The position numbers were made by a program, and so were the translations under genes. Positions 35,346-57,633 of a DNA stretch of 64,000 nucleotides are shown piece after piece (within the stretch, counting starts at the first letter, position 1; every line of letters starts with the position of its first letter). The notes below the pieces were generated by a model. That model ran no database searches. It was not told the DNA's origin and saw only the letters and a list, made by a program, of their open reading frames with translations. This DNA comes from Micavibrio sp. (GTDB lineage: Bacteria > Patescibacteriota > Minisyncoccia > Moranbacterales > GCA-2747515), in the NCBI GenBank assembly GCA_020718085.1, contig DYDB01000006.1:8510-72509 (forward strand). The letters run 5' to 3'.

Positions 35346-35356
35346 AATATTTCTTC

Positions 35357-38041: not shown

Positions 38042-38062
38042 TAATTCTTTTGAAGTGTACAT

Positions 38063-40234: not shown

Positions 40235-40285
40235 CTGTGCATGATGCGCAATTGAAAAATACAAAAAACACAAATATAAATTTAT

Positions 40286-42979
40286 ATGAAAAAGTTTGCA
40301 CAGAGACCATATCACACCATGTCGTCTAGTGCGTCACTTCTGCATCTGCAAACATCTGAAAAGGGATTGAGTGATTTTGATGCCGCAGGACGTATCAATG
40401 CCTTTGGAAAGAACTCTTTGCCAATGCAAAAAAAGTTATCGCGAACACGTCTTTTTTTGCGACAATTTCACAATCCATTGATCTATATTGTGATCATCGC
40501 TGCGGTGGTTTCCTTTGCAATTGATCATGTTGTAGATGCATTTTTTATTCTTTTTGTGATCGTTCTCAATGCCGTTGTGGGATTTGTGCAAGAGAATAAA
40601 GCGGAGAGATCCCTTGAAAAATTGCGTGAGAGCATAAAACAATATGTACGAGTGATCCGCTCTGGACGTAAGAAAAAGGTGTTATCAGAGGATGTTGCTG
40701 TTGGGGACGTTGTGGATCTCATTGCGGGTGACCGCATTTCTGCAGATGGACGATTGTTCATGATAGCTGATTTTTATGTGAATGAATCCACCTTGACCGG
40801 TGAATGGCACGATGTGGAGAAAAACATTGATATTATCGATGAAAATATCATCACTTCCGATCAAAAGAACATGGTTTTTGCTGGTACAAATGTAACACAA
40901 GGTCATGCACTTTATGTCGTAACTGCAACAGGAGTGGATTCTGAGCTTGGTAAAATTTCTCATTTTGTACAGAGCACGGAGCAGGCGAAGACGCCTCTGC
41001 AAAAAAGATTTGCACAGCTTTCTGTGATCATAGGTTTTGCAATTTTTGTTGCGATTCTCGGATTCGCTTTTGTGGGTGTTTGGCGAGGACAAGATGTGAA
41101 AGATATCTTTATTGCAGCTACAGCCCTTACCGTAAGTGCAATTCCAGAAGGATTACTTCCTGCCGTGACGATCGTGCTGATTTTTGGCATGCGTCGATTG
41201 GCACGACAATACGCATTGGTGAGGAAATTAAATGCGAGTGAAACAATGGGTGCGATCACAACTATTTGCACAGATAAAACAGGCACGTTAACGGAAGGGA
41301 AAATGGGTGTTAGTCACATTCTTACTGGAGCAAATGAACTGTTGGACTTCAATGATGGTGGAATTACAACACATGCAAAACATAAGGATTTTTCTGGACA
41401 TATCAAAGCCTTGACAATTGCATCTGTCGTTAATGATGCATATGTGGAAAATTTACAAGATGAACTATCACAACCAATCGTGCATGGCAGACCGACTGAT
41501 CGGGCACTTTTGATGGCTGCGATACAGGTTGGAATCGATGTGGAGGCATTTCAATATGAATATCCATTAGTGGATCAAGAGTTTTTCAAATCGGAGAGCA
41601 AATATGCAGTTCGTATTCATCAGTGGGGTAAGGATAAAATGCGTATTATGATGTTGGGAGCACCAGAACAAGTGCTGTCCAAAGCTTCTTTTATTGATGT
41701 TCATGGAGTGCGCATGCCAATCAATTCAATTGAGGGGGATCGGCTCAAAGAAACATTTGAAGATCTCACGCGAAAAGGTTTGCGTGTTTTAGCGTGCAGT
41801 GAGCGTGTCTTGACGAATGAAACATTTCAGAGATTGTCAAAAGAAGAAAGATATGAGTCAATGTCCCTCGTTGGCTTCATCGCTCTCAAAGATCCTTTGC
41901 GTTATGATGTAGAAGAATCGTTGCATGTTGCAGAGCGGGCGGGCATTCGCCTTGTCGTTATTACGGGAGACCATGCTGTAACCGCAAGATCTGTGATGGC
42001 GGAATTAGGACATAATGTATCTGAACAAAATATCTGTCTTGGAACAGAAATGGATCATATGTCTGACGCACAATTACAAGAACGTGTAAAATATGTGCAG
42101 ATCTTTGCACGTGTTTTGCCGGAACATAAAATTAGGATCGTGCGTGCATTGCAAAATAATGGAGAAGTTGTGGCAATGGTGGGGGATGGTATCAATGATG
42201 CACCGGCAATTAAAGCATCAGATGTTGGCATCAGCATTGGAGAGGGTGCGGATATTGCAAGAGAAGTGTCGGACATTGTTCTTCTTAATAGTAGTTTTAC
42301 GACGATTATCAAGGCAATTGAGCAAGGGCGTGTGATCTATGAAAATATTCGCAGGGTTCTTATTTATCTTGTGGCGGATGATTTTTCTGAGATTTTTATT
42401 TTTTTTGTTGCAATGTTCTTTGGTTGGCCATTACCTCTTTTGCCTCTGCAGATATTATGGATCAATATGATCGAAGATAGTTTTCCAAATATTGCACTAA
42501 CGACAGAATATGACAGTAAGAATTTAATGAAGGAGCCACCACGTAGTCCACACGAACCGATCATCTCCTCCGCATATAAAAAATTTATGAGCATCGTTTT
42601 TATCGTATCCGGACTTGCTGCAACATTTATTTTTTGGGTAACGCGAGAGATCACACAGGATATTGATACGGCGCGCACAGCTGCTTTTGTACTCATTTCC
42701 CTAGATTCCTTGATCTTTGTGTATGTCATCAGAAGCATGCGACAATATATTGTACGTCATGATATTTTTGATAATAAGTATGTGAATTATGCAGTGTTAT
42801 TATCATTTGTGATCCTTCTGGCAGGTTTATATATCCCATTATTTGCGCAATTTTTGGGCACTGTGCCATTATCTGGTGACATGTGGATCGTAATTGCGCT
42901 CATAACGATCATTGAAGTGGTGATATTTGAGGCAAGTAAAGGCATGTTATTTATACGACAAACGCAAGCGAAAATGTAA
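40286..42979 (+). CDS. Cation-transporting P-type ATPase (type II, Ca2+/Mg2+-ATPase-like)
   Basis: Phosphorylation motif 'ICTDKTGTLTEGKM'. 'TGD' hinge. 'VAMVGDGINDAPAIKASDVGISIG'. 10 TM. 897 aa. Confidence 0.9.
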   Translation: MKKFAQRPYHTMSSSASLLHLQTSEKGLSDFDAAGRINAFGKNSLPMQKKLSRTRLFLRQFHNPLIYIVIIAAVVSFAIDHVVDAFFILFVIVLNAVVGFVQENKAERSLEKLRESIKQYVRVIRSGRKKKVLSEDVAVGDVVDLIAGDRISADGRLFMIADFYVNESTLTGEWHDVEKNIDIIDENIITSDQKNMVFAGTNVTQGHALYVVTATGVDSELGKISHFVQSTEQAKTPLQKRFAQLSVIIGFAIFVAILGFAFVGVWRGQDVKDIFIAATALTVSAIPEGLLPAVTIVLIFGMRRLARQYALVRKLNASETMGAITTICTDKTGTLTEGKMGVSHILTGANELLDFNDGGITTHAKHKDFSGHIKALTIASVVNDAYVENLQDELSQPIVHGRPTDRALLMAAIQVGIDVEAFQYEYPLVDQEFFKSESKYAVRIHQWGKDKMRIMMLGAPEQVLSKASFIDVHGVRMPINSIEGDRLKETFEDLTRKGLRVLACSERVLTNETFQRLSKEERYESMSLVGFIALKDPLRYDVEESLHVAERAGIRLVVITGDHAVTARSVMAELGHNVSEQNICLGTEMDHMSDAQLQERVKYVQIFARVLPEHKIRIVRALQNNGEVVAMVGDGINDAPAIKASDVGISIGEGADIAREVSDIVLLNSSFTTIIKAIEQGRVIYENIRRVLIYLVADDFSEIFIFFVAMFFGWPLPLLPLQILWINMIEDSFPNIALTTEYDSKNLMKEPPRSPHEPIISSAYKKFMSIVFIVSGLAATFIFWVTREITQDIDTARTAAFVLISLDSLIFVYVIRSMRQYIVRHDIFDNKYVNYAVLLSFVILLAGLYIPLFAQFLGTVPLSGDMWIVIALITIIEVVIFEASKGMLFIRQTQAKM

Positions 42980-43027
42980 GGATAAAAAAACGCGCACTTT
43001 CATTTTTTTGGGAAGACTGTTACAGTA

Positions 43028-44113
43028 ATGATATGTAAAAATAGTATGATGCATAACGATATGATCCTCAAAAATCTCAATATTTATTTCTTTCTGGCAC
43101 TTCTGATAGGTGGTTCTATCGCGGGGTTTTTACTTGTCAAACCATTTCTTGGAGCTATATTCATTGCCGCGCTTTTTGCCGTACTTTTTAATAGACCTTA
43201 TGAGTATATAAGTGCAAAAATGCACAGTCCGGCGATCGCATCTGCGATCATGCTTTGTATTGTGGTCATCACGATCATTTTGCCGATCATATTTATTTCT
43301 GGATTGGTAGTTAGTGAAGTGTCGCAAGTGATTGCCGAGGCTACAATAGAAGATTCTGGTATGCGAAAATCTGTGGATGCGGTTGTAGAAAAGGTCTCAC
43401 AATTGCCATTTTCAGAAAAAGTGCTACATAACATAACACTGGACAGCATTAATGAAGAACAAGTTGTGAGAGTGTTAAAAAATACCGCATCATTCTTTCA
43501 AGCCGCATATCAAAGTGTTGTTAATGGTGTGATCGGATTTTTTGTGATGCTTTTTACGTTATTTTATTTCTTTATTGACGGACGACGTTTTGTGCACTAT
43601 GGAATGCAACTGAGTCCGCTACAGGATAGACATGAAGTGAAATTGATCCAGGAATTTATCTCCATGACACGCGCAACATTAAAAGGCACTGTTGTAATTG
43701 GATGTATTCAAGGAATCATCGGTGGTATTGCATTTGCAATTGCAGGAGTTGTTTCACCAATTTTTTGGATGGTTGTAATGATCGTCTTTAGTATTATTCC
43801 TGCTGTGGGAGCAGGTTTTGTGATCTTTCCTACAGCGATTGTGATGCTTCTCTTGGGGCATGTGTGGCAAGCGATCTTCCTGATCGTGGTCGGAACACTT
43901 GTATCAATTATTGACAATATTTTGCGACCAAAACTAGTCGGAAATGATACCCAGATGCATAGCTTGGCAGTATTCTTCGCAACGCTTGGCGGACTAAAGC
44001 TTTTTGGATTCATTGGATTTGTCGTTGGTCCGATCATTATGGCGCTCATGCTTGCAATGTGGAAGATCTACGCTGTTGAATTCAAAAAAGATCTGGAGCG
44101 ATTTAACGCATAG
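43028..44113 (+). CDS. AI-2E family transporter (UPF0118/PerM-like)
   Basis: 8 TM. C-terminal 'LVSIIDNILRPKLVGNDTQMHSLAVFFATLGGLKLFGFIGFVVGPIIMAL' is the AI-2E signature. Confidence 0.7.
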   Translation: MICKNSMMHNDMILKNLNIYFFLALLIGGSIAGFLLVKPFLGAIFIAALFAVLFNRPYEYISAKMHSPAIASAIMLCIVVITIILPIIFISGLVVSEVSQVIAEATIEDSGMRKSVDAVVEKVSQLPFSEKVLHNITLDSINEEQVVRVLKNTASFFQAAYQSVVNGVIGFFVMLFTLFYFFIDGRRFVHYGMQLSPLQDRHEVKLIQEFISMTRATLKGTVVIGCIQGIIGGIAFAIAGVVSPIFWMVVMIVFSIIPAVGAGFVIFPTAIVMLLLGHVWQAIFLIVVGTLVSIIDNILRPKLVGNDTQMHSLAVFFATLGGLKLFGFIGFVVGPIIMALMLAMWKIYAVEFKKDLERFNA

Positions 44114-44115
44114 CT

Positions 44116-44946
44116 ATGCAGGAATTTTGGCAACATCTTCCCGAATATTTTGATCCGATCGCATTTTCGATTGGAGAATTTTCGGTTTTTTGGTATTCGC
44201 TTATGTGGCTTACGGCATTTGCTGTGTGTTATGGCATGTTGGTATACCGTATGAGAAACAAAGAAATTGCATATGATAGGGAGTTAATTCAAGATGTCAT
44301 AACCAATGCACTTTTTGGTGCGTTGGTGGGAGGGCGATTGGGGTACGTGTTTTTCTATGATCTGTCATACTACGTTACAAATCCACTATCTATAATTTCT
44401 CCATACGACTTTAATTTGGGAGAATGGGTTGGCATCTATGGCATGAGCTATCATGGGGGTGTGATTGGTGTGGCGATTGCCATTTTTTTAATAGCACACA
44501 AAAAGAATATACGTGTGTTGAAGCTTTATGATCTCATAGTACCTGTTGTGCCATTCGGTTATATGTTCGGGCGTATTGGAAATTTTCTCAATCAGGAGTT
44601 AGTGGGGCGTATCACAACATCGCCTGTAGGCATGTATTTCAATGAGGAATCAGTACTGCGTCATCCATCGCAATTATATGAAGCTTTTTTCGAAGGCTTG
44701 GTATTATTTGGGATCATGTGGCAATTGCGCAATAAAGAGTTTTCGACAGGAACGCTTTCGGCGCTTTATCTCATGCTATATTCATTTTTTCGGTTTGTGA
44801 TCGAATTTTACCGTGCGCCTGATGAGCATCTTGGTCTCATTGTCGGCAATCTCACAATGGGACAGTTATTGTCGATTGGCGCCATCATTCTAAGTACGGG
44901 ATTTTTAATATATCGGAGAATGCATCGTGATCAAAAATTCTCATAA
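44116..44946 (+). CDS. lgt: Prolipoprotein diacylglyceryl transferase
   Basis: 'GGRLGYVFFY', 'YHGGVIG', Lgt signature 'GRIGNFLNQELVGR'. 276 aa. Confidence 0.9.
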   Translation: MQEFWQHLPEYFDPIAFSIGEFSVFWYSLMWLTAFAVCYGMLVYRMRNKEIAYDRELIQDVITNALFGALVGGRLGYVFFYDLSYYVTNPLSIISPYDFNLGEWVGIYGMSYHGGVIGVAIAIFLIAHKKNIRVLKLYDLIVPVVPFGYMFGRIGNFLNQELVGRITTSPVGMYFNEESVLRHPSQLYEAFFEGLVLFGIMWQLRNKEFSTGTLSALYLMLYSFFRFVIEFYRAPDEHLGLIVGNLTMGQLLSIGAIILSTGFLIYRRMHRDQKFS

Positions 44947-44996
44947 TGGTCAATAATCAGAAAAAATCTAAATATTTTTTATTATAGTTTAATCAC

Positions 44997-45839
44997 ATGG
45001 AGCATGTTTCCGCATTTATTTTTGCAACGTTTCAGGAAGCATTTGAGTATATGCATCCATATCTTTCCAATTATCAAAAATTTTCCAGATCTTTATCAAA
45101 ACAGATCAAGGTCAAAGAAAATGATAATATTCAATACAGCTTTGATGTGAAACTGGATCAGATGATCAAAAATAAAATTGAAGAATTTGGTATTACTGGA
45201 AAGATATTTTCAGAAGAAAGCGGATTTTTTGAATGTGGAAAAAATGTCTACAGAGTTGTCTATGATCCATTTTGTAACAGTTCTCTAGCAACGCGCACTT
45301 TTCAAGAAGCAGCTATCGGCATTTCTGTTTTTAGTTATGACTATGAATTTATCACTTCCGCCATTATGGATTTTCAAACTGGCATTGTGGGAATCGTGCA
45401 AGATGGAAAAAGTAATTTTTATCAAATTCAATCAAAAGAACAACTTATTTTTGATTATGTTAAAAATGAAACTCTTGAAGATTCTTGGGCTGTGATTACG
45501 TTGGAAAATCGTGAGGAAAGAAAAAATGTAGATGAAATTTTTGACATATTGAAAAAAACAAAAAGGATCATTGTCAGTAGTGGTCATATATACTGGCTAA
45601 AATTGGCAACTGGTATGATAGATATCTATGCTGACCCTTTTGGTGGAGAAAAGTTATATGAAATGTTCGCATGTACCGTGGCTCAGAAAAATGGTTGCAT
45701 TGTTACTGATAAGGATGGAAAATATTTTGATCCGGTTGAAAATTTGAAAATATTTGAGAACGATCAAAATCATATATATTATCCTGTTGCTACAACAAAT
45801 GAGGCTTTACATAAAGAGATTCTTAAACATATAAAATAA
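44997..45839 (+). CDS. Inositol-monophosphatase/FBPase-fold protein with degenerate catalytic motifs
   Basis: 'KIFSEESGFFECGKNVYRVVYDPFCNSSLATRTFQEAAIGISV' aligns with the IMPase 'sEE....wviDPiDGTtnF..g.p.faVsIal' region (DPxDGT becomes DPFCNS). 'IDIYADPFGGEKLYEMFACTVAQKNGCIVTDKDGKYFD' aligns with the C-terminal 'gkldgy.e..lkpWD.aAg.li..EAGG.vtd..G' region. Confidence 0.45.
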   Translation: MEHVSAFIFATFQEAFEYMHPYLSNYQKFSRSLSKQIKVKENDNIQYSFDVKLDQMIKNKIEEFGITGKIFSEESGFFECGKNVYRVVYDPFCNSSLATRTFQEAAIGISVFSYDYEFITSAIMDFQTGIVGIVQDGKSNFYQIQSKEQLIFDYVKNETLEDSWAVITLENREERKNVDEIFDILKKTKRIIVSSGHIYWLKLATGMIDIYADPFGGEKLYEMFACTVAQKNGCIVTDKDGKYFDPVENLKIFENDQNHIYYPVATTNEALHKEILKHIK

Positions 45840-45873
45840 GAAAGATCCAAATAATGAGAGAAACTTTAAATTT

Positions 45874-46302
45874 ATGAATACAGAATTTGAGGTTAAAATA
45901 TTGGCAATTGATATTGATGAGATCATTGTGAAATTGGCAGAATTGGGAGCAGAAAAAATTGGTGAAAAACAGCAAAGAAGGTTTGTGTATGATCTCATGC
46001 CAAAAAAAGAAAATTTATGGATCAGATTGAGAACGGATGGACAAAAGACAACAATGACCCTCAAAGAAATTCAAAATGATAAGATCGATGGCACGAAAGA
46101 AATCGAAATTCTTGTCGATGATTTTGATAAAACAAAAATTTTTCTGGAAAAATTGGGATATGAACATAAGAGTTATCAAGAAAATAGGCGTACAAGCTAT
46201 ATTCTGGATGGCGTGGAAATAGAAATTGATCTTTGGCCTCTTATTCCGCCATATGTGGAAATCGAAGGAAAGTCTGTTGATATGAAGTTGAACGAATGGT
46301 GA
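45874..46302 (+). CDS. CYTH-domain protein (class IV adenylyl cyclase / triphosphatase-like), apparently C-terminally truncated by a frameshift
   Basis: N-terminal ExExK signature 'EFEVKI'. 'WIRLRTDGQKTTMTLKE', 'VEIEIDLWP'. Only 142 aa; CYTH proteins are usually ~180 aa. The missing C-terminal part is found in the -1 frame at 46296..46436. Confidence 0.6.
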   Translation: MNTEFEVKILAIDIDEIIVKLAELGAEKIGEKQQRRFVYDLMPKKENLWIRLRTDGQKTTMTLKEIQNDKIDGTKEIEILVDDFDKTKIFLEKLGYEHKSYQENRRTSYILDGVEIEIDLWPLIPPYVEIEGKSVDMKLNEW

Positions 46303-46436
46303 AATTACTCGGATGTGAATCGTCACAAACAACGTCGATGAGCGTGAGTGATGTTTATAAAAAATACGGCATAGATATTGCTTCTATGAAAGAGTTGAAA
46401 TTTGGATCAAAAAACAAAGATGCAAATGTGACATGA
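46296..46436 (+). other. Out-of-frame ORF (46 aa) likely encoding the displaced C-terminus of the CYTH protein (frameshift or pseudogenisation)
   Basis: Frame 0 ORF MVKLLGCESSQTTSMSVSDVYKKYGIDIASMKELKFGSKNKDANVT overlaps the CYTH stop by 7 nt. Combined length is ~188 aa. Confidence 0.3.
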
Positions 46437-46481
46437 AATGTATCTCACACTTTTTTCAAAAATGTGGTATACTGTCTTGGT

Positions 46482-47795
46482 ATGGATATAGGTGAAGATT
46501 ATTCGCATCTATATGCGGGTGAAATAAAAAAACGGAAAAAGAAAATATATACAGACGGTTTAAAAGTTGTCGCGAAGAAACTCTGCGTTGATGCAGTGCG
46601 CGCACAAATGGGAGAACGTCATAATAATATTTCTGCCTTACTTCTACGGGGTGAGCGCACGAGTTTTTTTGTTACTGAAGATTCTGGTAAATATATCACT
46701 CCACTTGCACAACAAAAATACATGCAGAGCTATGAGCGCATCAACGCTGGGATGCGTTTTGATAGTGTGCATATTCGCTATCAAAAAAAATATACTGTCG
46801 GTGAAATGCATGTAAAACAATTGTCGGTTTATACAGATCGTTTCTTCAACACGGTGGAAAATTATCGCGCAGCCCTGCGTATTACGATGTCGCCTGTGCG
46901 TATGTACCAAGTTTCACTTGGAGGTGCGATGATATTTGGCATGGTTTCCATGAGCATGATCTATCAGAACCTTGGTCCCAGTGTATTTGCTGAGGGATTA
47001 GAAAATGTTATGAATAAAAATGATGATGCAAAAGAGGTTGTGCGCGTGATCGAAAATGTTGCCGATGAAAAAGAGCTTGTACAAGAAGAAAAAGTAGATG
47101 AAGGAAATGAAGATGTAAAAGAAGACGTGCAGGAAGAGATTAAGAGGACTGATGAAGTTTCTAAAGAAGAGGGACAGATCAAAAATGAAGATGAAAATAT
47201 ACAAAAGTCGGAACCGGTGATCATGTCGGATATTGTACCAAAGAATACGGAAGCGACTTCGCAGGAAAAACAAACGTCCGAAGAAAATAAAATGCAGGTT
47301 GTAACAAAATCAGTTGATAGTGTTGTCAAAAAGGAAGATGTGACAGAATCTGAAAGCATATCGGAAAAAACTCTTGAAGAATTGGCATATGAAACAGTAA
47401 AAGGACATCCAATTGAAAAGATGTTGCCATACATTCTCGAGCAGGATCCTGAAGTGGCAAAATATTTTATTGCCATTTCAAAACAAGAAAGCGGTTTTGG
47501 TGAACATGTGCCGGTTCTTAACGGACAGGATTGCTATAACTATCTTGGGTATCGTGGAAAGCGCAAGTTGATGGGAACGGGTGGACATACATGTTTTAAT
47601 AGCCGTAAGGATGCAGTGGAAACGATCAGTAAGCGTATCAAAACATTGATCTATGATCAGGATCAGAACACAGCACGAAAGCTTGTGGGTACATGGAAAT
47701 GTGGTAGCAAGGATTGTGCCGGACACTCAAAAGAGAGTGTCGATCGATGGGTGGGTTCTGTGGGGTCAACATATGATCAATTATCTGGAAAATGA
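46482..47795 (+). CDS. Membrane-anchored protein with an acidic E/K-rich linker and a C-terminal Cys-rich transglycosylase-like (QES motif) domain. Paralog of the 58718..59536 gene
   Basis: TM 'GGAMIFGMVSMSMIY'. ~130-aa low-complexity E/K region. C-terminal domain 'GHPIEKM...AISKQESGFGEHVP...DCYNYLGY...C...AVE...KR...WKCGSKDCAGHSKESVDRWVGSV'. The ORF track starts at the GTG at 46464. Confidence 0.55.
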   Translation: MDIGEDYSHLYAGEIKKRKKKIYTDGLKVVAKKLCVDAVRAQMGERHNNISALLLRGERTSFFVTEDSGKYITPLAQQKYMQSYERINAGMRFDSVHIRYQKKYTVGEMHVKQLSVYTDRFFNTVENYRAALRITMSPVRMYQVSLGGAMIFGMVSMSMIYQNLGPSVFAEGLENVMNKNDDAKEVVRVIENVADEKELVQEEKVDEGNEDVKEDVQEEIKRTDEVSKEEGQIKNEDENIQKSEPVIMSDIVPKNTEATSQEKQTSEENKMQVVTKSVDSVVKKEDVTESESISEKTLEELAYETVKGHPIEKMLPYILEQDPEVAKYFIAISKQESGFGEHVPVLNGQDCYNYLGYRGKRKLMGTGGHTCFNSRKDAVETISKRIKTLIYDQDQNTARKLVGTWKCGSKDCAGHSKESVDRWVGSVGSTYDQLSGK

Positions 47796-47916
47796 TCATG
47801 ACTCTGTGAAAAGGCGTAATAAACGCCTTTTTTGTGTAGTTGCTAAGAACTTGTCAGATATTATTTTACTGGTAATATTGTAATTGTTTTGATTTTTATA
47901 AAAAATAATTTGCATA

Positions 47917-48099
47917 ATAAGTAACTGTCTAGTATCTCACCGTCATAAAATGATTTGTCGATTGAAATGCAAAAATTTCGGCTGCAAAACATTCAGATCT
48001 CGTCATGTTACCTATGGGTAGCGTTCTCTCGATCTTCATGTTTTTCGCTCGAAATTTTAGAATTTCAATTCGACATGAGATATTAGACAGTTACTAAGC
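47917..48099. repeat. Pair of 21-bp inverted repeats (taagtaactgtctagtatctc ... gagatattagacagttactaa, 19/21 complementary) flanking a ~133-bp AT-rich segment immediately upstream of the Nuo-like operon. Candidate MITE-like element or large regulatory hairpin
   Basis: Read directly from the sequence: left arm 47917-47940, right arm 48074-48099. Confidence 0.45.
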
Positions 48100-48105
48100 A
48101 TTTCT

Positions 48106-49137
48106 ATGGAAAAGAGCAAAAGGATGTTGATCGCACTCAATAAAAAGCATTCCGAAATGTTTCAAAGTCAGAGGTTGGAACGGGAGTTGTATCTTTCACA
48201 GCATCCTACAAATGTGATCGTTTTTAAATGTATGGATGGACGCATTCACATGCCGACAGTAACACGTACTCCGCTTGGTATTATGCAACCATTTCGCAAC
48301 ATCGGAGGAAGGTTTGATTTAGGATGGCCGATGCTGAATGAGTCTTTTGATCAACATATCAAAAAAGCGGTGTCGAAAGGTAATCGTACACTCGTTTTGG
48401 TTACATATCATTTTTCCGCCGGTGATGAACATCGTGGTTGTGCAGGATTTAATTATGATTGCGAAGAATCGAAAAGATTCACAGAAAACTTTCGCAAACA
48501 AATTTTGCGTACATATGGAAAAGATAATGGTGTTGTCTACCCGATCCTTGTGGGCTTGGAAACTGATAAAGATGCGCTGATATTTCATGGGGAGCGTGGA
48601 CGCATTTTGGATGTGTCACAAATCGTTGATGCATCATTTGAATCATTATTTGTGTCATTTCATAAATTATATCCATCAATGCCGGAACGTATCCTACATG
48701 ATCTGATCCCATTGGTACAGGGTAATGTGCAATGTATTAAAGAAACAATGAACATGGGCAAGCCGCTCAAGCAAATGGTGCATGGTGAATGGATATTAGC
48801 TGTTGGAAAAGGTTTTGATTGGTTACATACGCCGAACATCGCTCTTATCGTAGGACCGTATGATCCGAATATTGGAGAACCGATCAAAAAAGCGGTAGGG
48901 ATCATCAAATCAAATTTACATACAAAAAAGACGAAAGACGGGTTTGTTCTCTTGTCATCAGCAGTATATTCTGACGCTGCGGAAAAAAACCGAGCAAAAG
49001 AACGCACGACATATCTTAGCAATTTAACACAAGAGATCATTGCGCAGCATTATGCGGATATGATTGCACGTACACATGTAATGTCTGTGATCATCAATGC
49101 ACAAACAATGGAAATGGAAATGATCAATCGAAAATAA
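48106..49137 (+). CDS. Beta-carbonic-anhydrase-like protein (internally duplicated; N-terminal half retains the zinc-site motif), first gene of the Nuo/Ehr-like cluster
   Basis: N-terminal half: 'KCMDGRI' (C-x-D-x-R), 'FRNIGG' (beta-CA RNxGN-like), 'YHFSAGDEHRGCAGF' (H-x-x-C-[AG]). The C-terminal half repeats the fold with ligands lost ('VQCIKETMNMG', 'FVLLSSAVYSDAAE'). Confidence 0.45.
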   Translation: MEKSKRMLIALNKKHSEMFQSQRLERELYLSQHPTNVIVFKCMDGRIHMPTVTRTPLGIMQPFRNIGGRFDLGWPMLNESFDQHIKKAVSKGNRTLVLVTYHFSAGDEHRGCAGFNYDCEESKRFTENFRKQILRTYGKDNGVVYPILVGLETDKDALIFHGERGRILDVSQIVDASFESLFVSFHKLYPSMPERILHDLIPLVQGNVQCIKETMNMGKPLKQMVHGEWILAVGKGFDWLHTPNIALIVGPYDPNIGEPIKKAVGIIKSNLHTKKTKDGFVLLSSAVYSDAAEKNRAKERTTYLSNLTQEIIAQHYADMIARTHVMSVIINAQTMEMEMINRK

Positions 49138-49241
49138 GATATTTGACAGGCACACCGGAGGAGAGTACCATATAGTCTATAAAAAAGCACAAATTGGCAT
49201 CAAAGAGTGACATGCCATGTTTTATAGTGTGAAAAAACTTT

Positions 49242-49787
49242 ATGAAAATTTTTAAGCTGATCTACCTATTGGTTTTTGGAAAAAAAGTAACGGAAAAACG
49301 AAAAAAATTCGAAGAAAAAAACCAGAGCGGAAAAGAATTTGATGTCATTGGTGCAGAGGTGCAACAAATCATCAAAAAATTGTACAATGGTCGATCCTTA
49401 CGCATTCGCGCTGTTGATGCTGGTTCAACCAATGCGGAAGAAATCGAGCTGACAGCATTAAATAATGCATATTATGACATTGATCGCTTTGGCTTGAGTT
49501 TTGTTGCATCGCCGCGTCATGCGGACATGCTCTTTGTAACAGGTCCGGTTACGAGAAATTTGGAAAACGCTCTTCGTACGACATATGAGGCTGCACCACA
49601 GCCGTGTATTGTGGTTGCTGTTGGAGATGGTGCATGTACGGGGGGAATATGGAAAGATTCATATGCTGTAGTTGGTGCCGTGGATCAGGTGATACCAGTG
49701 CATGTGCGTATTCCGGGAGACCCGCCAACCCCAACAGAGATCTTGCGGGGCATATTAACAGCGCTGAAAACAAATAACTCACAATAA
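49242..49787 (+). CDS. NuoB/HycG-like small subunit lacking 3 of 4 N2 [4Fe-4S] cysteine ligands
   Basis: 'SFVASPRHADMLFVTGPVTRNLENALRTTYEAAPQPCIVVAVGDGACTGG...PVHVRIPGDPPTPTE' aligns with NuoB 'ASPRQADVMIVAG...GACA.SGG...PGCPPRPE'. The CCxxE motif is replaced by 'DAGSTNAEEIE' and 'PGCPP' has become 'PGDPP'. Confidence 0.8.
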   Translation: MKIFKLIYLLVFGKKVTEKRKKFEEKNQSGKEFDVIGAEVQQIIKKLYNGRSLRIRAVDAGSTNAEEIELTALNNAYYDIDRFGLSFVASPRHADMLFVTGPVTRNLENALRTTYEAAPQPCIVVAVGDGACTGGIWKDSYAVVGAVDQVIPVHVRIPGDPPTPTEILRGILTALKTNNSQ

Positions 49788-49796
49788 TTCATATTT

Positions 49797-51797
49797 ATGT
49801 TAGGACAATATATTGTTTTTGGGATCATATTCTATTTTTTGAGCTTATTTCTATCTGGCGTTCTGGTGTTTATTGACCGTACGTTCATCAATGCAGCATG
49901 GCTTTTCGTTGTCTCTAACATTGTGGGATTTATTTCGGGTGTCTTGTATTTTGTTGGTTTTTTTGGATATAATATTACAATCGCGCATTTTGATTGGTTT
50001 TTTCAATTTTCACCACATATCGCATCTCTTTCTGCGATCTTTTTTACATTGATCAGCGGGGTTTCCGCGGTTGTGGGTGTGTATAGTGTGCGATATTTGA
50101 CCATCTACGAAAAAACGTATGATCCGCGGTCTGTACTGTTTTTGATGGCATTTTTTGTATTGGGCATGCAGGGAGTGATTGTCGCCAATAATGCATTTTC
50201 ATTTTTATTCTTTTGGGAATTGATGTCCATCTCATCATTTTTTCTTGTTCTTGTTGATCGTACGCAAAAATCAATTTCAGCAGCGTTTTTATATTTCATC
50301 ATGACGCATCTGGGAGCGTCAGCAATCTTGGGTGGATTCTTGATCTTGGGAAACGGTTCTTTTCTTTTTGAACTTTCAGGCATGTATGATGCAGCACAGA
50401 CATTGTCACCAGCGCTTCGCAATACGGCATTTCTTCTTTTCATTTTTGGATTTGGTTCAAAGGCTGGACTCGTACCATTTCACATCTGGCTCCCGGAGGC
50501 GCATCCTCAGGCACCAAGTAATATTTCTGCACTGATGAGCGGGCTGATGTTGAAGATCGCAATATACGGTTTTACAATGATCATACTCGCAATGGGGCAG
50601 ATGCCCGTATGGATCGCTCTGATCGTGTTATTTTTGGGAATGTTGTCCAGTATCGTGGGAGCACTTTATGCTGTTGTCGAGAGGGATATGAAACGTGCAT
50701 TTGCATACAGCAGTATTGAAAACATGGGAATTATCTTTTCCATGTTTGGACTGGCGTTGTATTTCTTTGCACAAGATGCTTCGATGGCTACATTAATGAT
50801 CGGAGTGAGCATAATTGCATTTGCTCTATTTCATGCAGTAAGTCACGCGCTTTTTAAAACGGCGCTCTTTCTTAGCAGTGGTGTTGTGATCAGTCGTACG
50901 CATACGAAGAGTCTTGATGCGATGGGAGGACTTGCAAAAATCATGCCGATTTTCACTGTTGGCTTTCTTGTGGTGACATTGAGCGCTTTGCCAATCCCTC
51001 CATTTGGTACATTTTACGGAGAATGGGGTTTTGTGCAGAATATCATTTTTGCAATGCGAGATATGATCATGGAACCAAAGACAATTGTGTTGCTACTTGG
51101 CACATTGATCGTGACAGGTCTGGTAAGTGGTTTGGCAATTTTTGCGATGATCCGTATTTTTAGCTTGTCGATGCTCGGGTTATCACATGATCCACGAAGA
51201 CCACATCGTGATGAAAGAATGGATCATCTTCTCATTATGCCAATTATCGTTTTGGGCATTACTGTTCTTGTGTGTGGTTTTTTTGCGAGCACGATCGTTG
51301 ATACATTGACTTTTGCGGTATATACAACTGGTGGATATGCGCGAGATATAACAGTAAATATAGCGCCGCATATGGACATGATGGTTGGTGTGGGGACAGT
51401 TTTGTGTTTTTTTGTGGGAGCGGCAATTTATATGTGGATCAAAAAAAATACACGAATGCGTGCATACCATACATGGGATTGTGGACAACCGATTGACGCG
51501 ACAATGCAATACAGTGCAACTGCGTTTTGTGCCCCGATCAGATTTTTTTTCCTTACATTTATCGGGCGTAAAAAGGTCATGTCTTCACAACCAATCATAC
51601 AATCGAACCCGTGGATCGTAAAGAATACATTTGCGTTATCCATACGATCGAAATGGAGTGATATATTCTATGATCCAATTGCAAAAATTCTGCTTTTCAT
51701 TGCTGATCGGATTCGTTTTGTACAAAATGGACGTATTCAATATTACATTCTTTTTCTCTTTCTTGCGTTAATTCTTACTCTTATATTTGTGTTATGA
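49797..51797 (+). CDS. NuoL/MrpA/HyfB-like antiporter-type membrane subunit (666 aa)
   Basis: 'GLVPFHIWLPEAHPQAPSNISALMSG' is the WLPDAxxxxPTPVSAL antiporter-module motif. About 16-18 TM. Confidence 0.85.
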   Translation: MLGQYIVFGIIFYFLSLFLSGVLVFIDRTFINAAWLFVVSNIVGFISGVLYFVGFFGYNITIAHFDWFFQFSPHIASLSAIFFTLISGVSAVVGVYSVRYLTIYEKTYDPRSVLFLMAFFVLGMQGVIVANNAFSFLFFWELMSISSFFLVLVDRTQKSISAAFLYFIMTHLGASAILGGFLILGNGSFLFELSGMYDAAQTLSPALRNTAFLLFIFGFGSKAGLVPFHIWLPEAHPQAPSNISALMSGLMLKIAIYGFTMIILAMGQMPVWIALIVLFLGMLSSIVGALYAVVERDMKRAFAYSSIENMGIIFSMFGLALYFFAQDASMATLMIGVSIIAFALFHAVSHALFKTALFLSSGVVISRTHTKSLDAMGGLAKIMPIFTVGFLVVTLSALPIPPFGTFYGEWGFVQNIIFAMRDMIMEPKTIVLLLGTLIVTGLVSGLAIFAMIRIFSLSMLGLSHDPRRPHRDERMDHLLIMPIIVLGITVLVCGFFASTIVDTLTFAVYTTGGYARDITVNIAPHMDMMVGVGTVLCFFVGAAIYMWIKKNTRMRAYHTWDCGQPIDATMQYSATAFCAPIRFFFLTFIGRKKVMSSQPIIQSNPWIVKNTFALSIRSKWSDIFYDPIAKILLFIADRIRFVQNGRIQYYILFLFLALILTLIFVL

Positions 51798-53395
51798 ATT
51801 CCTTAATAGCCATTTCTATACAGATCATATTTGTTTTGTTGGTTGCACCGTTTGCATCTGGTATGGTTCGGTTTGTAAAAGCGCGCTTACAAGGAAGGCA
51901 TGGTGCGTCACCATTTCTTCCATATATAACATTATTAACTTTGATGCGTAAAGAGATGGTTGTATCATCTGCAACATCGTGGATATTTCACGTTGTGCCA
52001 TTTGTGGTTTTGGGAAGCACATTTGCTTTAGCGTGTATTGTGCCAACGATCTTTGTAGGAACATCAGTTGCAAATGTGAGTGATTTTTTGGTTGTGGCAG
52101 GCATACTGATCATTGGCTCAGTTTTCTTGGTCATGGGTGGTTTGGATACGGGAAGTGCGTTCGGTGGTATGGGCTCAAGTCGTGAGATGACAATTGCCGC
52201 GTTGTTGGAACCAGTGATCATTATGGTTTTTGCGACACTGAGTTTTGTAACGGGAACGTCAACAATTGATGGTATGTTACAACAACAATTGAGTTTTGCG
52301 GATCCGTATTTGTTTTTAATTATTGGCGCTCTTGGACTTGTTGCATTGGCGGAAAACGCACGATATCCTGTAGATAATCCTGCAACACATTTGGAATTAA
52401 CAATGGTACATGAGGCAATGATCTTGGAATATTCCGGTGCGTATCTGGCTTTGTTGGAGTATGCAGCAGCAATTAAGTTAACAATCTTTTCTCTCCTTAT
52501 TGCAAACTTTGCTTTTCCTCAGACGATGCTCAGTGGTTCTTTGGAGGGTGGTATCGCAGCTGTTGGTGTGGGAATGGTTTATGCCACAGTAAAGATCATT
52601 GTAGTGATGATCGGTTTGGCTTTTGTAGAATCTTTACTGGTAAAAATGCGATTCTATCGTATGTCTGAATATTTTTCTATTGCTTTTGTTGTAGCATTGT
52701 TGGGCATGATCGTTGCTCTTTTTTCCCAACATGCCGGAGTATCGATGCAATATCATGTGCTTTTCTCGCTGTGTACGATCATTTGCATCGTCTTATTATT
52801 TGGACGCGTGCGTCTCAAGGCTATGTTGCGATACTATGCAATCTCTTCTTTTGCGATTGCAGGTATCGCGTGGGGATTATTACCACTTGTAGTGGAGGAA
52901 GAAAGGATTCATTTGTGGATATTTGCTCTTTTCACAATTGTGACAAAAACATTCGCAGTACCATATGTGATCAATCATGCGGGGCATGTGAAGAAAAGTC
53001 TCACAAACCTCCCATCGTTTTTACGACCGGGGAAAAGTTATTTTCTAGCGGTTATTCTTCTTATGATCACATACTTTGTTTTGAATGAAGTGTCTATTAC
53101 GGGTCTCATTAAATGGAATTCTTTACTTTATGCATCTGTTGCCTCAATTGTTCTTGGCATTGCTCTGATGATCATTAAGAGAAATATTTTTTCGCAAATC
53201 ATCGGATTATTGATCATAGAAAATGGAATCGCAATTTTTGTGTTGGCAACAGTTGGTTCATTGCCAGTGATGATCGAATTTGGCATTTTTGCCGTGACAG
53301 TGGCAACTGCATACATTTTGGCATTGTTGAGTGCACAGATCAATGAACTGTATGGTAGTACTGATACGGAAGACCTGCGAGAACTGATCGAGTAA
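51794..53395 (+). CDS. Fusion of a NuoH/HycD-like subunit with a NuoK/HyfE-like C-terminal module (533 aa)
   Basis: N-terminal 'KARLQGRHGASPFLPYITLLTLMRKE' matches NuoH/HycD 'R.QxRxGPxxLQPxxDxLKLxxKE'. C-terminal 'IIGLLIIENGIAIFVLATVGSLPVMIEFGIFAVTVATAYIL' is NuoK/HyfE-like with a membrane-embedded Glu. The start overlaps the upstream stop (ATGA). Confidence 0.7.
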   Translation: MNSLIAISIQIIFVLLVAPFASGMVRFVKARLQGRHGASPFLPYITLLTLMRKEMVVSSATSWIFHVVPFVVLGSTFALACIVPTIFVGTSVANVSDFLVVAGILIIGSVFLVMGGLDTGSAFGGMGSSREMTIAALLEPVIIMVFATLSFVTGTSTIDGMLQQQLSFADPYLFLIIGALGLVALAENARYPVDNPATHLELTMVHEAMILEYSGAYLALLEYAAAIKLTIFSLLIANFAFPQTMLSGSLEGGIAAVGVGMVYATVKIIVVMIGLAFVESLLVKMRFYRMSEYFSIAFVVALLGMIVALFSQHAGVSMQYHVLFSLCTIICIVLLFGRVRLKAMLRYYAISSFAIAGIAWGLLPLVVEEERIHLWIFALFTIVTKTFAVPYVINHAGHVKKSLTNLPSFLRPGKSYFLAVILLMITYFVLNEVSITGLIKWNSLLYASVASIVLGIALMIIKRNIFSQIIGLLIIENGIAIFVLATVGSLPVMIEFGIFAVTVATAYILALLSAQINELYGSTDTEDLRELIE

Positions 53396-53414
53396 TTTCT
53401 TATCTTATTTTATT

Positions 53415-54890
53415 ATGATCATTATATTATTAACATTGTTCATTCTCACAGCAATTGGTGCGTGGTTTGGACGTAATGCAAAAAATGTGCGCACTGTCAG
53501 TGTATTTTTAGCCGCGTTAAGTAGCATTATGCTCGTACTGGCTGCATGGTCACCAGTAATGTATGGACAGATCGCGCGATATGGATCATGGTGGACGATT
53601 GATGGTTTTTCGGGTCTCATGATCATATTGATCGCATGCGTATACATGGCCACTGTTGCGATTAGCGTGCGATATATCGGTCATGAATTGGCAAGTCAAA
53701 TCATTTCTTTCAATCAGTATCGGTTGTATTTTACATTACTTCCGATCTTTGCTTTGTGTATGGTGATCACTGTACTTACCAATAACTCTCTGGTGTTATG
53801 GCTTGCATTGGAAGGAACAACACTTTTTTCAACATTTCTTGTAGGTCTGTACCGTAAAAAAACAAGCATTGAAGCAGCATGGAAATACATGATCCTTTGC
53901 TCAACGGGCATTAGTATTGGTTTAGTTGGTATTTTGTTATTGAGCTATGGTGTGCATGACAGCGAAATTCGTGGAGGTGAAATGTTCTTGATCAGCACAT
54001 TAGTGGAACATGCACAACTGATCCCAGAAAATATTATAAAACTTTCTTTCGTCCTGCTCTTTATTGGTTTTGGAACAAAGGTGGGTCTGGTTCCAATGCA
54101 TACATGGTTACCCGATGCACATAGTAAAGCACCATCTCCAATTTCTGCTATTTTTTCGGCGGTATTGCTCAATGTTGCACTTTATGCAATTATCCGTTTC
54201 AAATACATTGCGGATGTATCCTTTGGAAATGCAGAATGGACGAGTCAGTTATTTGTGATATTTGGATGCATCTCAGTATTTTTGGCTGCACTTATGATGC
54301 TCATTCAACAAAATTATAAACGCATGTTGGCATATTCCAGTATTGAACACATGGGACTTATACTTTTTGCGATCGGACTTTCTCCATTTGGCGCAATTGC
54401 TGCTGTGATGCATATGATCGGACACACATTTGCTAAGTCAGCACTTTTTTTTGGTGCTGGTGAGATCCTGATCCGTTGGAAAACGACAAAGATCCCAAAA
54501 ATTGCCAATATGTATGTGCAAGCGCCGTATACAAGCATTCTTTTTATCATTGCAATCTTGGGCATTATTGCAATCCCACCATCAGCACTTTTTGTGAGTG
54601 AGTACGGTATGTTTGCGCAGGCGATCATCATGTATCCAAAAACTACATTAGCACTTTTTGTTGCTCTGGCTGTGATCGCTTATGCGATGCTCTCTCTCAC
54701 GATCACGATGGTCTTTCATGAGGATGAGAGTAAGATAAATGGAAGTATCAAGAAGGAGTCATGGAATATTACACATACAGTGATCGTGATCGAACTGGTC
54801 ATAATTGTGATCTTTGCAATGTGGTTTACAACAACACAGGGTTCTGACGTGATCAACAATATCGTTAATAGTTTTTTGTTTATAAAATAA
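53415..54890 (+). CDS. NuoM/NuoN/MrpD/HyfF-like antiporter-type membrane subunit
   Basis: 'GLVPMHTWLPDAHSKAPSPISAIFSAVLLNVALYAIIRF' is the canonical antiporter-module motif. 491 aa, ~14 TM. Confidence 0.85.
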   Translation: MIIILLTLFILTAIGAWFGRNAKNVRTVSVFLAALSSIMLVLAAWSPVMYGQIARYGSWWTIDGFSGLMIILIACVYMATVAISVRYIGHELASQIISFNQYRLYFTLLPIFALCMVITVLTNNSLVLWLALEGTTLFSTFLVGLYRKKTSIEAAWKYMILCSTGISIGLVGILLLSYGVHDSEIRGGEMFLISTLVEHAQLIPENIIKLSFVLLFIGFGTKVGLVPMHTWLPDAHSKAPSPISAIFSAVLLNVALYAIIRFKYIADVSFGNAEWTSQLFVIFGCISVFLAALMMLIQQNYKRMLAYSSIEHMGLILFAIGLSPFGAIAAVMHMIGHTFAKSALFFGAGEILIRWKTTKIPKIANMYVQAPYTSILFIIAILGIIAIPPSALFVSEYGMFAQAIIMYPKTTLALFVALAVIAYAMLSLTITMVFHEDESKINGSIKKESWNITHTVIVIELVIIVIFAMWFTTTQGSDVINNIVNSFLFIK

Positions 54891-54908
54891 GTGGGATGCA
54901 TGTGATCT

Positions 54909-56489
54909 ATGATCATGCACAATAAGAATATGGATATCAAAGAAATCAGCAATCGTTTTCAAAACATGACAATAGTTTCTGTGGATGAAAGTCTCATGTG
55001 TGTTCGTGTCTCACGTGAGGATCTTGCACATGTCATCACATCTCTTGTAGAAGAAGGTCAGGCGCAACTATCATCTCTTTTTGCCACAGACGATCGACAA
55101 GAACAAGGTGTATTTGGTGTACATGCGATTTGCAGCATATACGATGTACCTCAGCGAATGATGATCTCTATTTCCATTCCTGCTGATGATCCACAATATC
55201 CATCGATCACACAAACGGTTATGGCTGCGCATTGGTATGAACGTTATATGAGGGATATGTTTGGTATTGAACCTGTTGGACATCCAGATTTGCGACGATT
55301 GGTGCATCATGAAAATGTGCCAGAAAATATTCATCCACTCAGAAAAGATTTTGCATGGAATACGAAAATGCCAAAAGCAAACATCGCATATCCGATGCAC
55401 CATATAAAGGGAGAGGGTATATTTGAAATTCCTGTCGGACCGATTCATGCAGGTATCATTGAGCCGGGACACTTTCGTTTCAATGTGGCAGGGGAACGCA
55501 TTCTTACACTAGAGGGCAAGTTATTTTTTACACACAAGGGTGTAGAAAAATTGGTGGAAAACAAGAAACCTATTGATGCGTTACCCTTTATTGAAAGATT
55601 GTCTGGAGACATGAGTGCTGCACATGCACTTGCATATGTGGAGGCTGTGGAAAAGATCGGGCAATGTCATGTATCAAAACGAGCACAGATGTTGCGTGCG
55701 ATCATCACGGAATGTGAGCGTATCACAATGCATATACATGACCTTGCAAATATCGGCGGCATGGGAACAGGATACAGTTTTATTGCGGCGAATGGATTTC
55801 GTATCAAAGAACGTATGATGCGTTTGTCAGATGAGCTATGTGGTAATCGTTTTTGGCGGGGCGTTATCACAATTGGCGGCATGACAAGGGATTGGACTAC
55901 AGATGAACTTGATCATGTAGTTGCGACCTCTTATGAAGCATGGCAAGAAATTGCACATATTGTATCTTTGGCATTGGACAGTGAAGGATTCCTGGATCGT
56001 TTACAGTATACGGGGGAATTGCCATACGAGGCGGCGCAGGCGTTTGGGGCTGTTGGATTACCTGCACGTGCTTCTGGTGTGGATCGTGATGTGCGCAGAG
56101 ATTATCCATATGCATCATATACAGACTTTCCGGTAACGGTGATCAAAAAGAAAAGTAGCGATGTGTTTGCGCGATACCGTATGCGTATCTTAGAAATTGA
56201 ACAATCTATTGCGTTGATTAAAACACTTGTAGCAGAAATTGCGGACGGAGAGGTTATGACATCATGTGAACCGAAAAATGGCCTTGCTATTGGTTCAGTG
56301 GAGTCATGGAGGGGTGAAATTATTTGTGTGGTACGCATAAATAATGGCGTGATCGACAGATGTTTTCCACGTGATCCGTCTTTTTGTAATTGGGCGCTTT
56401 TTGGTATTATGGGGCCTGGTAATATTGTGCCGGATTTTCCACTAATTAATAAAAGTTTAAATCTCTCCTATTCGGGAACGGATCTATAG
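54909..56489 (+). CDS. Fused NuoC-like + NuoD/[NiFe]-hydrogenase-large-subunit-like protein lacking all four NiFe-binding cysteines
   Basis: N-terminal NuoC-like 'AAHWYERYMRDMFGIEPVGHPDLRRL'. The large-subunit region where hydrogenases carry RxCGxCxxxH reads 'ERLSGDMSAAHALAYVEAVE'. The C-terminal 'VESWRGEI...RDPSFCNWALFGIM...SLNLSYSGTDL' lacks the DPCxxCxxH motif. Confidence 0.8.
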   Translation: MIMHNKNMDIKEISNRFQNMTIVSVDESLMCVRVSREDLAHVITSLVEEGQAQLSSLFATDDRQEQGVFGVHAICSIYDVPQRMMISISIPADDPQYPSITQTVMAAHWYERYMRDMFGIEPVGHPDLRRLVHHENVPENIHPLRKDFAWNTKMPKANIAYPMHHIKGEGIFEIPVGPIHAGIIEPGHFRFNVAGERILTLEGKLFFTHKGVEKLVENKKPIDALPFIERLSGDMSAAHALAYVEAVEKIGQCHVSKRAQMLRAIITECERITMHIHDLANIGGMGTGYSFIAANGFRIKERMMRLSDELCGNRFWRGVITIGGMTRDWTTDELDHVVATSYEAWQEIAHIVSLALDSEGFLDRLQYTGELPYEAAQAFGAVGLPARASGVDRDVRRDYPYASYTDFPVTVIKKKSSDVFARYRMRILEIEQSIALIKTLVAEIADGEVMTSCEPKNGLAIGSVESWRGEIICVVRINNGVIDRCFPRDPSFCNWALFGIMGPGNIVPDFPLINKSLNLSYSGTDL

Positions 56490-56584
56490 TTTTTCGTGCG
56501 TAAGCACATTAGTAGGGCGTGTATAGTTCTTTATCATGGCAATAAGTAGTTCATTAAAATATATACAACAGCGAGGATTGATTC

Positions 56585-57496: not shown

Positions 57497-57519
57497 TACA
57501 TGTGTTACAATAGGAGATC

Positions 57520-57550
57520 TCTAATTTAGAGATCTCCTATCTTCATATAT
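57520..57550. promoter_or_regulatory. Perfect 13-bp inverted repeat ATAGGAGATCTCT-aattt-AGAGATCTCCTAT: terminator-like hairpin or operator
   Basis: Located 24 bp after the 57496 stop. Not followed by a T-run. A TATAAT-like box follows at ~57565. Confidence 0.4.
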
Positions 57551-57633
57551 TCTTATTTGATCGCATGCGGTATAATCAATAGGGTATGAAGATGTTGCGA
57601 TGGTTTTTTGTATGAATTTAAACAATACGTATT

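Follow-up and report, generated by a model that had tools for sequence, protein, structure and literature searches.

Two membrane-anchored paralogues with a remote GH73-like domain in Moranbacteria-like Patescibacteria

What is the C-terminal domain shared by two proteins encoded some distance apart on one contig of an uncultured bacterium, and what might the pair do? The window analysed here is a 64,000-nt stretch (contig DYDB01000006.1 of GenBank assembly GCA_020718085.1, positions 8,510 to 72,509 of the forward strand) from a genome labelled Micavibrio sp. and placed by GTDB among the Patescibacteriota, and the two proteins are the products of genes that we call A and B. An initial annotation, made from the sequence alone, had described them as membrane-anchored paralogues that end in a novel cysteine-rich domain resembling lysozymes or lytic transglycosylases, and had proposed that they remodel the cell wall. 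Profile comparisons and structure models instead place the domain as a very divergent, cysteine-stapled branch of the known GH73 (glucosaminidase) fold, without its being a new fold. We think it fairly probable that A and B are type-II membrane paralogues that hold a divergent GH73-type domain outside the cell, where they would most likely cut the glycan strands of peptidoglycan.

The shared C-terminal domain and its kinship to GH73

Residue numbers are counted from ATG 46482 for A and from ATG 58718 for B, except for the BLASTP spans, which follow the full open reading frames (ORFs). The genes, their shared domain and its main residues are as follows.

46482..47795, + strand: gene A (the A-type paralogue), 437 aa plus stop, identical to database gene call P0116
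47373..47792, + strand: GH73-like domain of A, residues 298-437, from AlphaFold, Foldseek and invariant columns
47487..47489, + strand: codon of A Glu336
47532, 47592, 47700 and 47715, + strand: codons of A Cys351, Cys371, Cys407 and Cys412
58718..59536, + strand: gene B (the B-type paralogue), 272 aa from ATG 58718, to which P0001 is 100% identical
59069..59503, + strand: GH73-like domain of B, residues 118-262, from AlphaFold, Foldseek, hhalign and conservation
59183..59185, + strand: codon of B Glu156
59228, 59288, 59396 and 59408, + strand: codons of B Cys171, Cys191, Cys227 and Cys231

Aligned by BLASTP, A and B show 38% identity and 56% positives over 176 aa (E = 5e–38), a paralogy far beyond chance. 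The match is restricted to the C-termini (A 269-440, B 127-298), where the two proteins have in common a domain of ~145 aa, and the motif string quoted in the initial annotation can be read directly in the alignment.

Sequence profiles and predicted structures agree on a remote kinship of this domain to GH73. When 66 members of the family were scanned singly, the Pfam Glucosaminidase model PF01832 gave sub-threshold matches in 25 (the best at E = 0.0011, covering profile positions 5-81 of 123), and the SLT model did so in two (E = 0.048). With hhalign the domain profile matched E. coli FlgJ at 76-77% probability and a 22-sequence FlgJ profile at 88.3% (E = 2.9e–6, 59 columns), pairing GIAKKES.WG of the family with AQAALESGWG of FlgJ, CYNYWGYK with SYNLFGIK and CFxSPEEAV with FRVYSSYxEA; Glu156 of B aligns with the glutamate of ALESGWG, which is E184 in the Salmonella numbering of PMC4752226. 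On the structural side, two AlphaFold models built from two different alignments gave the domain high per-residue confidence (pLDDT, the predicted local distance difference test: ~98 for B; 82-96 per 10-residue block, mean ~93, for A). Foldseek searches of the PDB returned GH73 enzymes as all of the first 8 matches for B and all of the first 11 for A (probability 0.77-1.00, E = 0.007-0.7), namely FlgJ 5dn4/5dn5, 2zyc/3vwo/3k3t, AtlE 4pi7, LytB 7pj3 and the type VI effector Tge2 4kt3, the FlgJ structures coming from Salmonella and Sphingomonas. Among the viral models of BFVD, phage 'mannosyl-glycoprotein endo-beta-N-acetylglucosaminidases' came first (E = 2.8e–3, probability 1.00). AlphaFold and Foldseek together support a lysozyme-like fold, with a central helix in a helical lobe set against a β-hairpin lobe.

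Conservation, counted over 233 members in B numbering, follows the GH73 pattern through the first part of the domain. The glutamate is present in every member (E156, 233 of 233) and is followed by S157 (232 of 233), W159 (201 of 233) and G160 (232 of 233), so that the E-S-x-W-G end of the helix is in place, and the Y-N-x-F-G-I-K strand of GH73 is matched by C-Y-N-Y-W-G-Y-K/R, in which N173 and G176 are invariant and Y174 is found in 230 members. Positions conserved at 95% or more are G160, P164, G168, N173, Y174, G176, G188, F192, A198, V199, R205, W225, K226, G228 and W242, and the four cysteines C171, C191, C227 and C231 each occur in 231-232 of the 233 (99%). The initial annotation had picked out the Glu-Ser motif and the four cysteines from the two window sequences.

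The same Glu-Ser motif had prompted the comparison with transglycosylases, and a member of the SLT/GH23 lytic transglycosylases would use its glutamate as the single catalytic acid and release 1,6-anhydro-MurNAc. The resemblance is real at this point: IA(K/R)QES is identical to AIARQES at the catalytic Glu478 of E. coli Slt70, the lysozyme-like fold is common to GH23 and GH73, the A model matched a GH23-family chitinase (3w6f, probability 0.89), and a single-carboxylate mechanism would suit a hairpin from which the glutamate is missing. However, hhalign gave Slt70 only 5.8% over 22 columns, against 88% over 59 columns for FlgJ, and the sub-threshold Pfam matches lean the same way (SLT in 2 of 66, Glucosaminidase in 25 of 66). 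True transglycosylase structures (Cj0843 6cf9, SltB1 4anr) were reached only at E = 4.8-5.7 and probability ≤0.18, and 3w6f itself ranked below all GH73 entries. Past the Glu-Ser the family residues are of GH73 type (WG ... YN.(F/W)G.K), whereas the Slt70 sequence diverges. We consider this alternative quite improbable and rejected the SLT/GH23 identity because profile similarity to Slt70 stops after 22 columns.

Of the earlier description, then, the lysozyme-like half holds, as detectable similarity in the Foldseek matches, with Glu-Ser as the likely catalytic centre, and the SLT/GH23 half is not supported; judging from profiles and models, the proteins carry a probably muralytic domain that resembles GH73 and not SLT. 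To call the domain novel was too strong, because it aligns with GH73 including the ES.WG and YN.(F/W)G.K motifs. Matches of A and B to DUF6488 (E = 0.046), XopZ and RomY in family scans were discarded as unusable noise, as were PDB-sequence matches to poly(A)-binding protein and gp41, which are compositional or due to chance.

Membrane anchors, cysteines and a proposed mechanism

Upstream of the shared domain the two proteins are built differently.

46482..46892, + strand: N-terminal domain of A, residues 1-137, basic (net +9), presumed cytoplasmic
46893..46979, + strand: membrane helix of A, residues 138-166, SLxGAxLFGMxSMxMIYxNLG, from conservation and an AlphaFold helix at 138-173
46980..47372, + strand: acidic linker of A, residues 167-297, E/K/D-rich, disordered
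58823..58888, + strand: transmembrane signal anchor of B, AYFVLTGVTFMIAGSFFVF, residues 36-57, from Kyte-Doolittle hydropathy and an AlphaFold helix
58889..59068, + strand: helical stalk of B, residues 58-117, acidic, with Cys78 and Cys101

In both A and B the charges around the hydrophobic segment are distributed positive-inside and the C-terminal domain comes after it. The membrane anchoring proposed in the initial annotation is clear for B, where the Kyte-Doolittle mean over 19 residues is 1.90 and the short N-terminal tail has a net charge of +5. For A it is plausible and borderline: the sole hydrophobic segment of the protein has a mean of 1.32, after a region of net +9. G153, Y161 and G165 of this segment are invariant, and we presume residues 138-166 to be a signal-anchor or partner-binding transmembrane helix. 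The N-terminal domain that precedes it, with L-x3-G-x-R-T-x2-F-x-T-E-D-S-x2-Y-I and D-S-x3-R conserved in an alignment of A-type members, has an AlphaFold pLDDT of 50-85 and gave neither a Pfam match nor a structural match with Foldseek; it is an uncharacterised small domain specific to the Moranbacteria-like lineage. The E/K-rich acidic linker of ~130 aa that had been reported for one of the paralogues was recovered in A, where 131 aa include 27 E, 11 D, 16 K and 2 R (net charge –20, pI 4.3) and AlphaFold finds no secondary structure (pLDDT 31-40), as expected of a disordered segment. Within the domain itself the hairpin segments of the two types are systematically unlike (RKLMGTGGHTCFNSRKD in the A-type, GSRGxxMGYACFGSPEE in the B-type), which suggests subfunctionalisation of the A-type and B-type.

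The four domain cysteines probably form two disulfides, one (C171-C191) spanning the short hairpin at its base and one (C227-C231) in the WKCGxSC loop. We prefer this to a zinc site because the cysteines are lost pairwise (P0115 lacks C171 and C191 and keeps C227 and C231, and P0227 shows the reverse), because His234 is present in just 72% of members, and because most B-type stalks carry two further cysteines (exactly two in 67 of 128 non-A-type members, and zero in 101 of 105 A-type members). In B these are Cys78 and Cys101, a likely third disulfide specific to the B-type. A structural zinc site made up of the four cysteines and the frequent histidine would account for the near invariance of the cysteines and for the C-x3-C-x2-H pattern, and many organisms of the candidate phyla radiation (CPR) inhabit anoxic environments, in which disulfides are less expected. 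Against it stand the paired losses and the variable histidine, and likewise the extracytoplasmic location, the even number of additional stalk cysteines and the presence, as conserved upstream neighbour of the paralogues in related genomes, of a gene for a membrane-anchored thioredoxin-fold protein with a CxxC motif. We regard a zinc site as unlikely; the choice bears on stabilisation only, can go together with each of the functional readings and does not compete with them.

The mechanism that we propose starts from an N-in, C-out topology, in which the GH73-like glycosidase domain would lie on the outside of the membrane. The bond cut would probably be GlcNAc-β-1,4-MurNAc, by analogy with FlgJ, AtlE, LytB and SagB, and the general acid that protonates the glycosidic oxygen would be the invariant glutamate (E336 of A, E156 of B) with which the central helix ends. 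Because the hairpin is truncated and has no conserved carboxylate, we infer that the second catalytic role would be filled otherwise, probably by the 2-acetamido group of the substrate or by another conserved residue, for example D170, N173, Y174 or K226. Outside the cell, the two disulfides probably lend the domain stability. B would stay near the membrane on its helical stalk of ~60 residues and A would be carried on its flexible acidic linker of ~130 residues, and the cytoplasmic domain and near-invariant membrane helix of A suggest, as in the pairing of SagB with SpdC, an interaction with a partner that regulates or scaffolds it, and control from inside the cell.

Several observations weigh against this reading. 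Direct scans of A and B with Pfam and NCBIfam gave nothing above threshold (no curated family model covers the domain, as the initial annotation had held); A and B themselves had no match to PF01832, and the best score of that model among their homologues, 19 bits, falls short of the gathering cutoff of 30.2 and so misses the curated GH73 threshold. PDB-sequence searches gave nothing significant with the full-length profile, nor with the domain profile, for which FlgJ appeared at E = 0.22 only, and the Foldseek matches have modest E-values (0.003-0.04) and TM-scores (~0.4-0.5); for these reasons we call the kinship to GH73 remote. The β-hairpin is ~18 residues shorter than that of FlgJ, as seen in the hhalign gap, and positions 178-190 contain no conserved Asp or Glu, so that the second carboxylate of FlgJ, Auto and TM0633 is absent. 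The C-terminal GYATDP.Y motif, invariant in the 22-sequence FlgJ alignment, has no sequence counterpart in the family by hhalign or Pfam, and WKCGxSCAxH stands in that part of the domain. Further, the membrane helix of A is just moderately hydrophobic, the cysteine pairings are drawn from co-loss in single sequences and from secondary-structure position, and tblastn found no homologue of the thioredoxin-fold neighbour in the window.

Absence of the hairpin carboxylate, and of YATD at the sequence level, would also be in keeping with an inactive or repurposed lysozyme-like module that acts as a glycan-binding envelope scaffold, a sensor or a regulator, and A, with its conserved cytoplasmic domain and membrane helix, does resemble a transmembrane signalling or scaffolding protein. 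We nonetheless find loss of activity unlikely, since the retention of Glu (233 of 233) and Ser (232 of 233) in both paralogue lines, together with the groove motifs, is hard to explain without catalysis. The hairpin carboxylate (E223 in FlgJ, E156 in Auto, and that of TM0633) is missing from some GH73 sequences, active GH73 enzymes in which no such residue is essential are on record, and the family requires only the invariant Glu (PMC4752226). Catalysis by a divergent GH73-type domain is the reading that we retain for A and B.

Family distribution and genomic neighbourhood

Homologues of A numbered 375, and a domain-only profile, searched exhaustively with HMMER against 1.84 billion cluster representatives, matched 347 proteins at E ≤1e–3 and 237 at E ≤1e–30; the representatives stand for clusters at 50% identity, so 347 is a count of clusters. 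The domain is C-terminal in 150 of 150 representatives among the matches listed, in proteins of 139-465 aa, and when each GTDB species was represented by one genome, relatives of the family turned up at 372 loci. Every homologue belongs to an uncultured member of the Patescibacteria/CPR; most are from Candidatus Moraniibacteriota, and some records carry the labels Parcubacteria, Paceibacteria or Minisyncoccota. The family is compact and confined to Moranbacteria-like Patescibacteria. Nearly all of the ~490 proteins retrieved go without a name or under 'hypothetical' and lack a precomputed Pfam domain, the sole name of its kind being the automatic JGI name 'uncharacterized FlgJ-related protein' on P0045, which we take to be linked to COG2992/Bax. 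No description of the family was found in the literature on GH73 or peptidoglycan hydrolases in CPR/Parcubacteria and, to our knowledge, hardly any cell-wall hydrolase of CPR/Patescibacteria has been characterised.

Many metagenome-assembled genomes (third-party annotation, TPA, records) bear non-CPR titles, namely 'uncultured Bdellovibrionales bacterium', 'uncultured Pseudobdellovibrionaceae bacterium' and 'uncultured Micavibrio sp.', and show the same synteny of thioredoxin-like, A and B genes as genomes of Moraniibacteriota (L016, L017, L021-L023, L026 and others). The Bdellovibrionales, Pseudobdellovibrionaceae and Micavibrio labels probably reflect a wrong taxonomic assignment of CPR bins.

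Features around and between the two genes, and the thioredoxin-fold gene of related loci, are these.

48106..58400, + strand: nine-gene block between A and B, from Pfam, encoding no part of either enzyme
58607..58634, + strand: sigma-70-like promoter match TTGACT-16-TATACT upstream of gene B, a consensus match only
59543..59572, + strand: intrinsic-terminator-like hairpin, 13-bp stem then T run, 7 nt past the gene B stop
L002:6432-6836, L005:4478-4882 and L006:4284-4688: 134-aa thioredoxin-fold gene in three relatives' loci

The arrangement found in the relatives is a tandem. Counted over the best 80 of the 372 species-representative loci, an A-type and a B-type gene stand in tandem in 54, that is in 54 of the 67 with enough flank, with the A-type first in 43 of the 54 and a median gap of ~180 bp; in three related genomes the order on one strand is AI-2E transporter, Lgt, the 134-aa gene, A-type, B-type. 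In 20 of the 54 tandem loci the pair is directly preceded by the 134-aa gene, whose product is a transmembrane-anchored protein of glutaredoxin/thioredoxin fold with CPHC or CSHC and a second cysteine pair; this fits a role in the oxidative folding of exported cysteine-bearing proteins.

In the window, A and B lie 10.8 kb apart among housekeeping genes. The split is common to a clade, since at locus L089 an A orthologue (71% identical) is followed immediately by the same CsoSCA-like/Nuo/Mrp-like block; the closest relatives, L009 and L010, also lack an A adjoining B. The block encodes CsoSCA-like, NuoB-like, two Mrp/NuoL-like, NuoH+K-like, NuoC/D-[NiFe]-hydrogenase large-subunit-like, Pro_CA_2, NUDIX and DUF2103 proteins. 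The genes of the block at 48106..57496 are co-directional, and this set (a CsoSCA-like carbonic-anhydrase-domain protein, a NuoB-like protein, two Mrp/NuoL-type antiporter subunits, a NuoH+NuoK fusion, a fused NuoC/NuoD-[NiFe]-hydrogenase large-subunit-like protein and a Pro_CA_2 putative carbonic anhydrase) appears from its domain content to be an energy-converting hydrogenase or complex-I-like membrane module between two carbonic-anhydrase-like proteins, reminiscent of CO2-hydration or DAB-like systems.

The place that the thioredoxin-fold gene takes in relatives is occupied in the window, between Lgt and a CYTH-domain gene, by a 280-aa ORF (44997..45839) with no Pfam match at E ≤1. The CYTH-domain gene (45874..46302) was itself considered as a counterpart of the 134-aa neighbour and rejected, as BLASTP shows no relation. 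Other wall-related genes of the window encode a 723-aa LysM + LytR_C protein (38063..40234) and a 254-aa protein with only the Mur-ligase middle domain (61059..61823). Long ORFs of the window (1..64000) are almost all on the + strand, and no tRNA genes or Rfam families were detected in these 64 kb.

As to the gene starts, the frame of A can be extended to GTG 46464, and the product from ATG 46482 (437 aa) is that of P0116. An extended –10-like TGgTATACT (46465..46473) ends 8 nt 5′ of this ATG, no Shine-Dalgarno sequence is evident before it in 46444..46484, and the transcript of A may be leaderless or nearly so. The frame of B is open from 58583 and ends at 59536; an alternative start at GTG 58691, with an SD-like AAGGAG just 5′ of it, gives the 281 aa of the database call P0001, and the orthologues of B begin at residues MVINEEPS, which correspond to ATG 58718. 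Promoter-like matches are no more frequent than expected from shuffled sequence and thus serve as positional hints only.

The neighbourhood bears on whose wall the enzymes would cut. CPR bacteria are widely regarded as epibionts, and an epibiont might direct the enzymes at the wall of a partner or host, or at another GlcNAc polymer, with the linker of A reaching host peptidoglycan; a disordered segment of ~130 residues could span a long distance, and the structural matches include GH73-like toxins such as Tge2. Yet A and B keep their membrane anchors and have no secretion or toxin-delivery domains, their neighbours are housekeeping envelope genes (Lgt, and YkuD in L002) with no immunity-like pairing seen there, and a tandem pair kept by nearly every species looks like core physiology. 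A target outside the cell's own wall therefore seems to us improbable, and action on peptidoglycan of the cell that makes A and B is the version that we keep.

A wider proposal, which we offer tentatively and as a possibility rather than an expectation, joins the thioredoxin-fold, A-type and B-type genes into a peptidoglycan processing machine specific to Moranbacteria. It would consist of two differently tethered, single-carboxylate GH73-like enzymes that are oxidatively folded outside the cell, of which B would work at the membrane, trimming nascent strands or releasing them, and A, controlled from the cytoplasm through its N-terminal domain and helix, would reach further, acting through the wall or on a host cell. 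If this is true, the family would count as a subfamily of GH73 with a mechanism of its own, in which the hairpin is truncated, the second carboxylate is missing and a WKCGxSC loop replaces YATD, and would give a handle on the division of ultra-small CPR cells, which lack most known autolysins.

Short of that, placement in GH73 gives a testable function to 347 clusters and 372 loci that are virtually all annotated 'hypothetical'. A natural GH73 variant without the hairpin carboxylate bears on substrate-assisted catalysis in some GH73 enzymes, and the conserved arrangement of two membrane-tethered enzymes may show how tiny cells remodel or split their wall. The gain is incremental, as neither the fold nor the principle is new.

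Comparison with known systems

Among known systems the closest in the domain itself are the GH73 enzymes (FlgJ of Salmonella, E. coli and Sphingomonas, AtlE, LytB and the phage enzymes), which have the same α lobe and β-hairpin fold and likewise carry the Glu of E-S-x-W-G, then the YN-x-(F/W)-G-x-K strand and then a helix with F/CF-x-S-x-x-E-A. Unlike them, the family has a hairpin ~18 residues shorter and devoid of the carboxylate, four cysteines, and W-K-C-G-x-S-C-x-H where they have GYATDP.Y, and its domain is always C-terminal on a membrane anchor. The name 'uncharacterized FlgJ-related protein' (COG2992/Bax) on P0045 points in the same direction as this GH73 analysis. SLT/GH23 enzymes (Slt70, PF01464) have the same superfold, the same position of the catalytic Glu and literally the same AIARQES, but the likeness ends after the 22 columns aligned (5.8%), and the downstream motifs of the family are of GH73 type.

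In architecture the nearest parallel is SagB of S. aureus, which likewise has a transmembrane anchor at its N-terminus and, after it, an extracellular domain of GH73 type. Its membrane partner SpdC orients the active site, and nascent glycan strands are cut near the membrane (bioRxiv 10.1101/2020.05.21.109470). Among the neighbours of A and B, both in the window and in L002-L006, no polytopic partner of the SpdC/CAAX-protease-like kind was evident, no genome-wide search for one having been made. Unlike SagB, the A-type adds a cytoplasmic domain of ~135 residues and a long acidic linker, and the catalytic domains are only remotely related; by analogy with SagB and SpdC, the near-invariant membrane helix of the A-type would fit the interface with such a partner.

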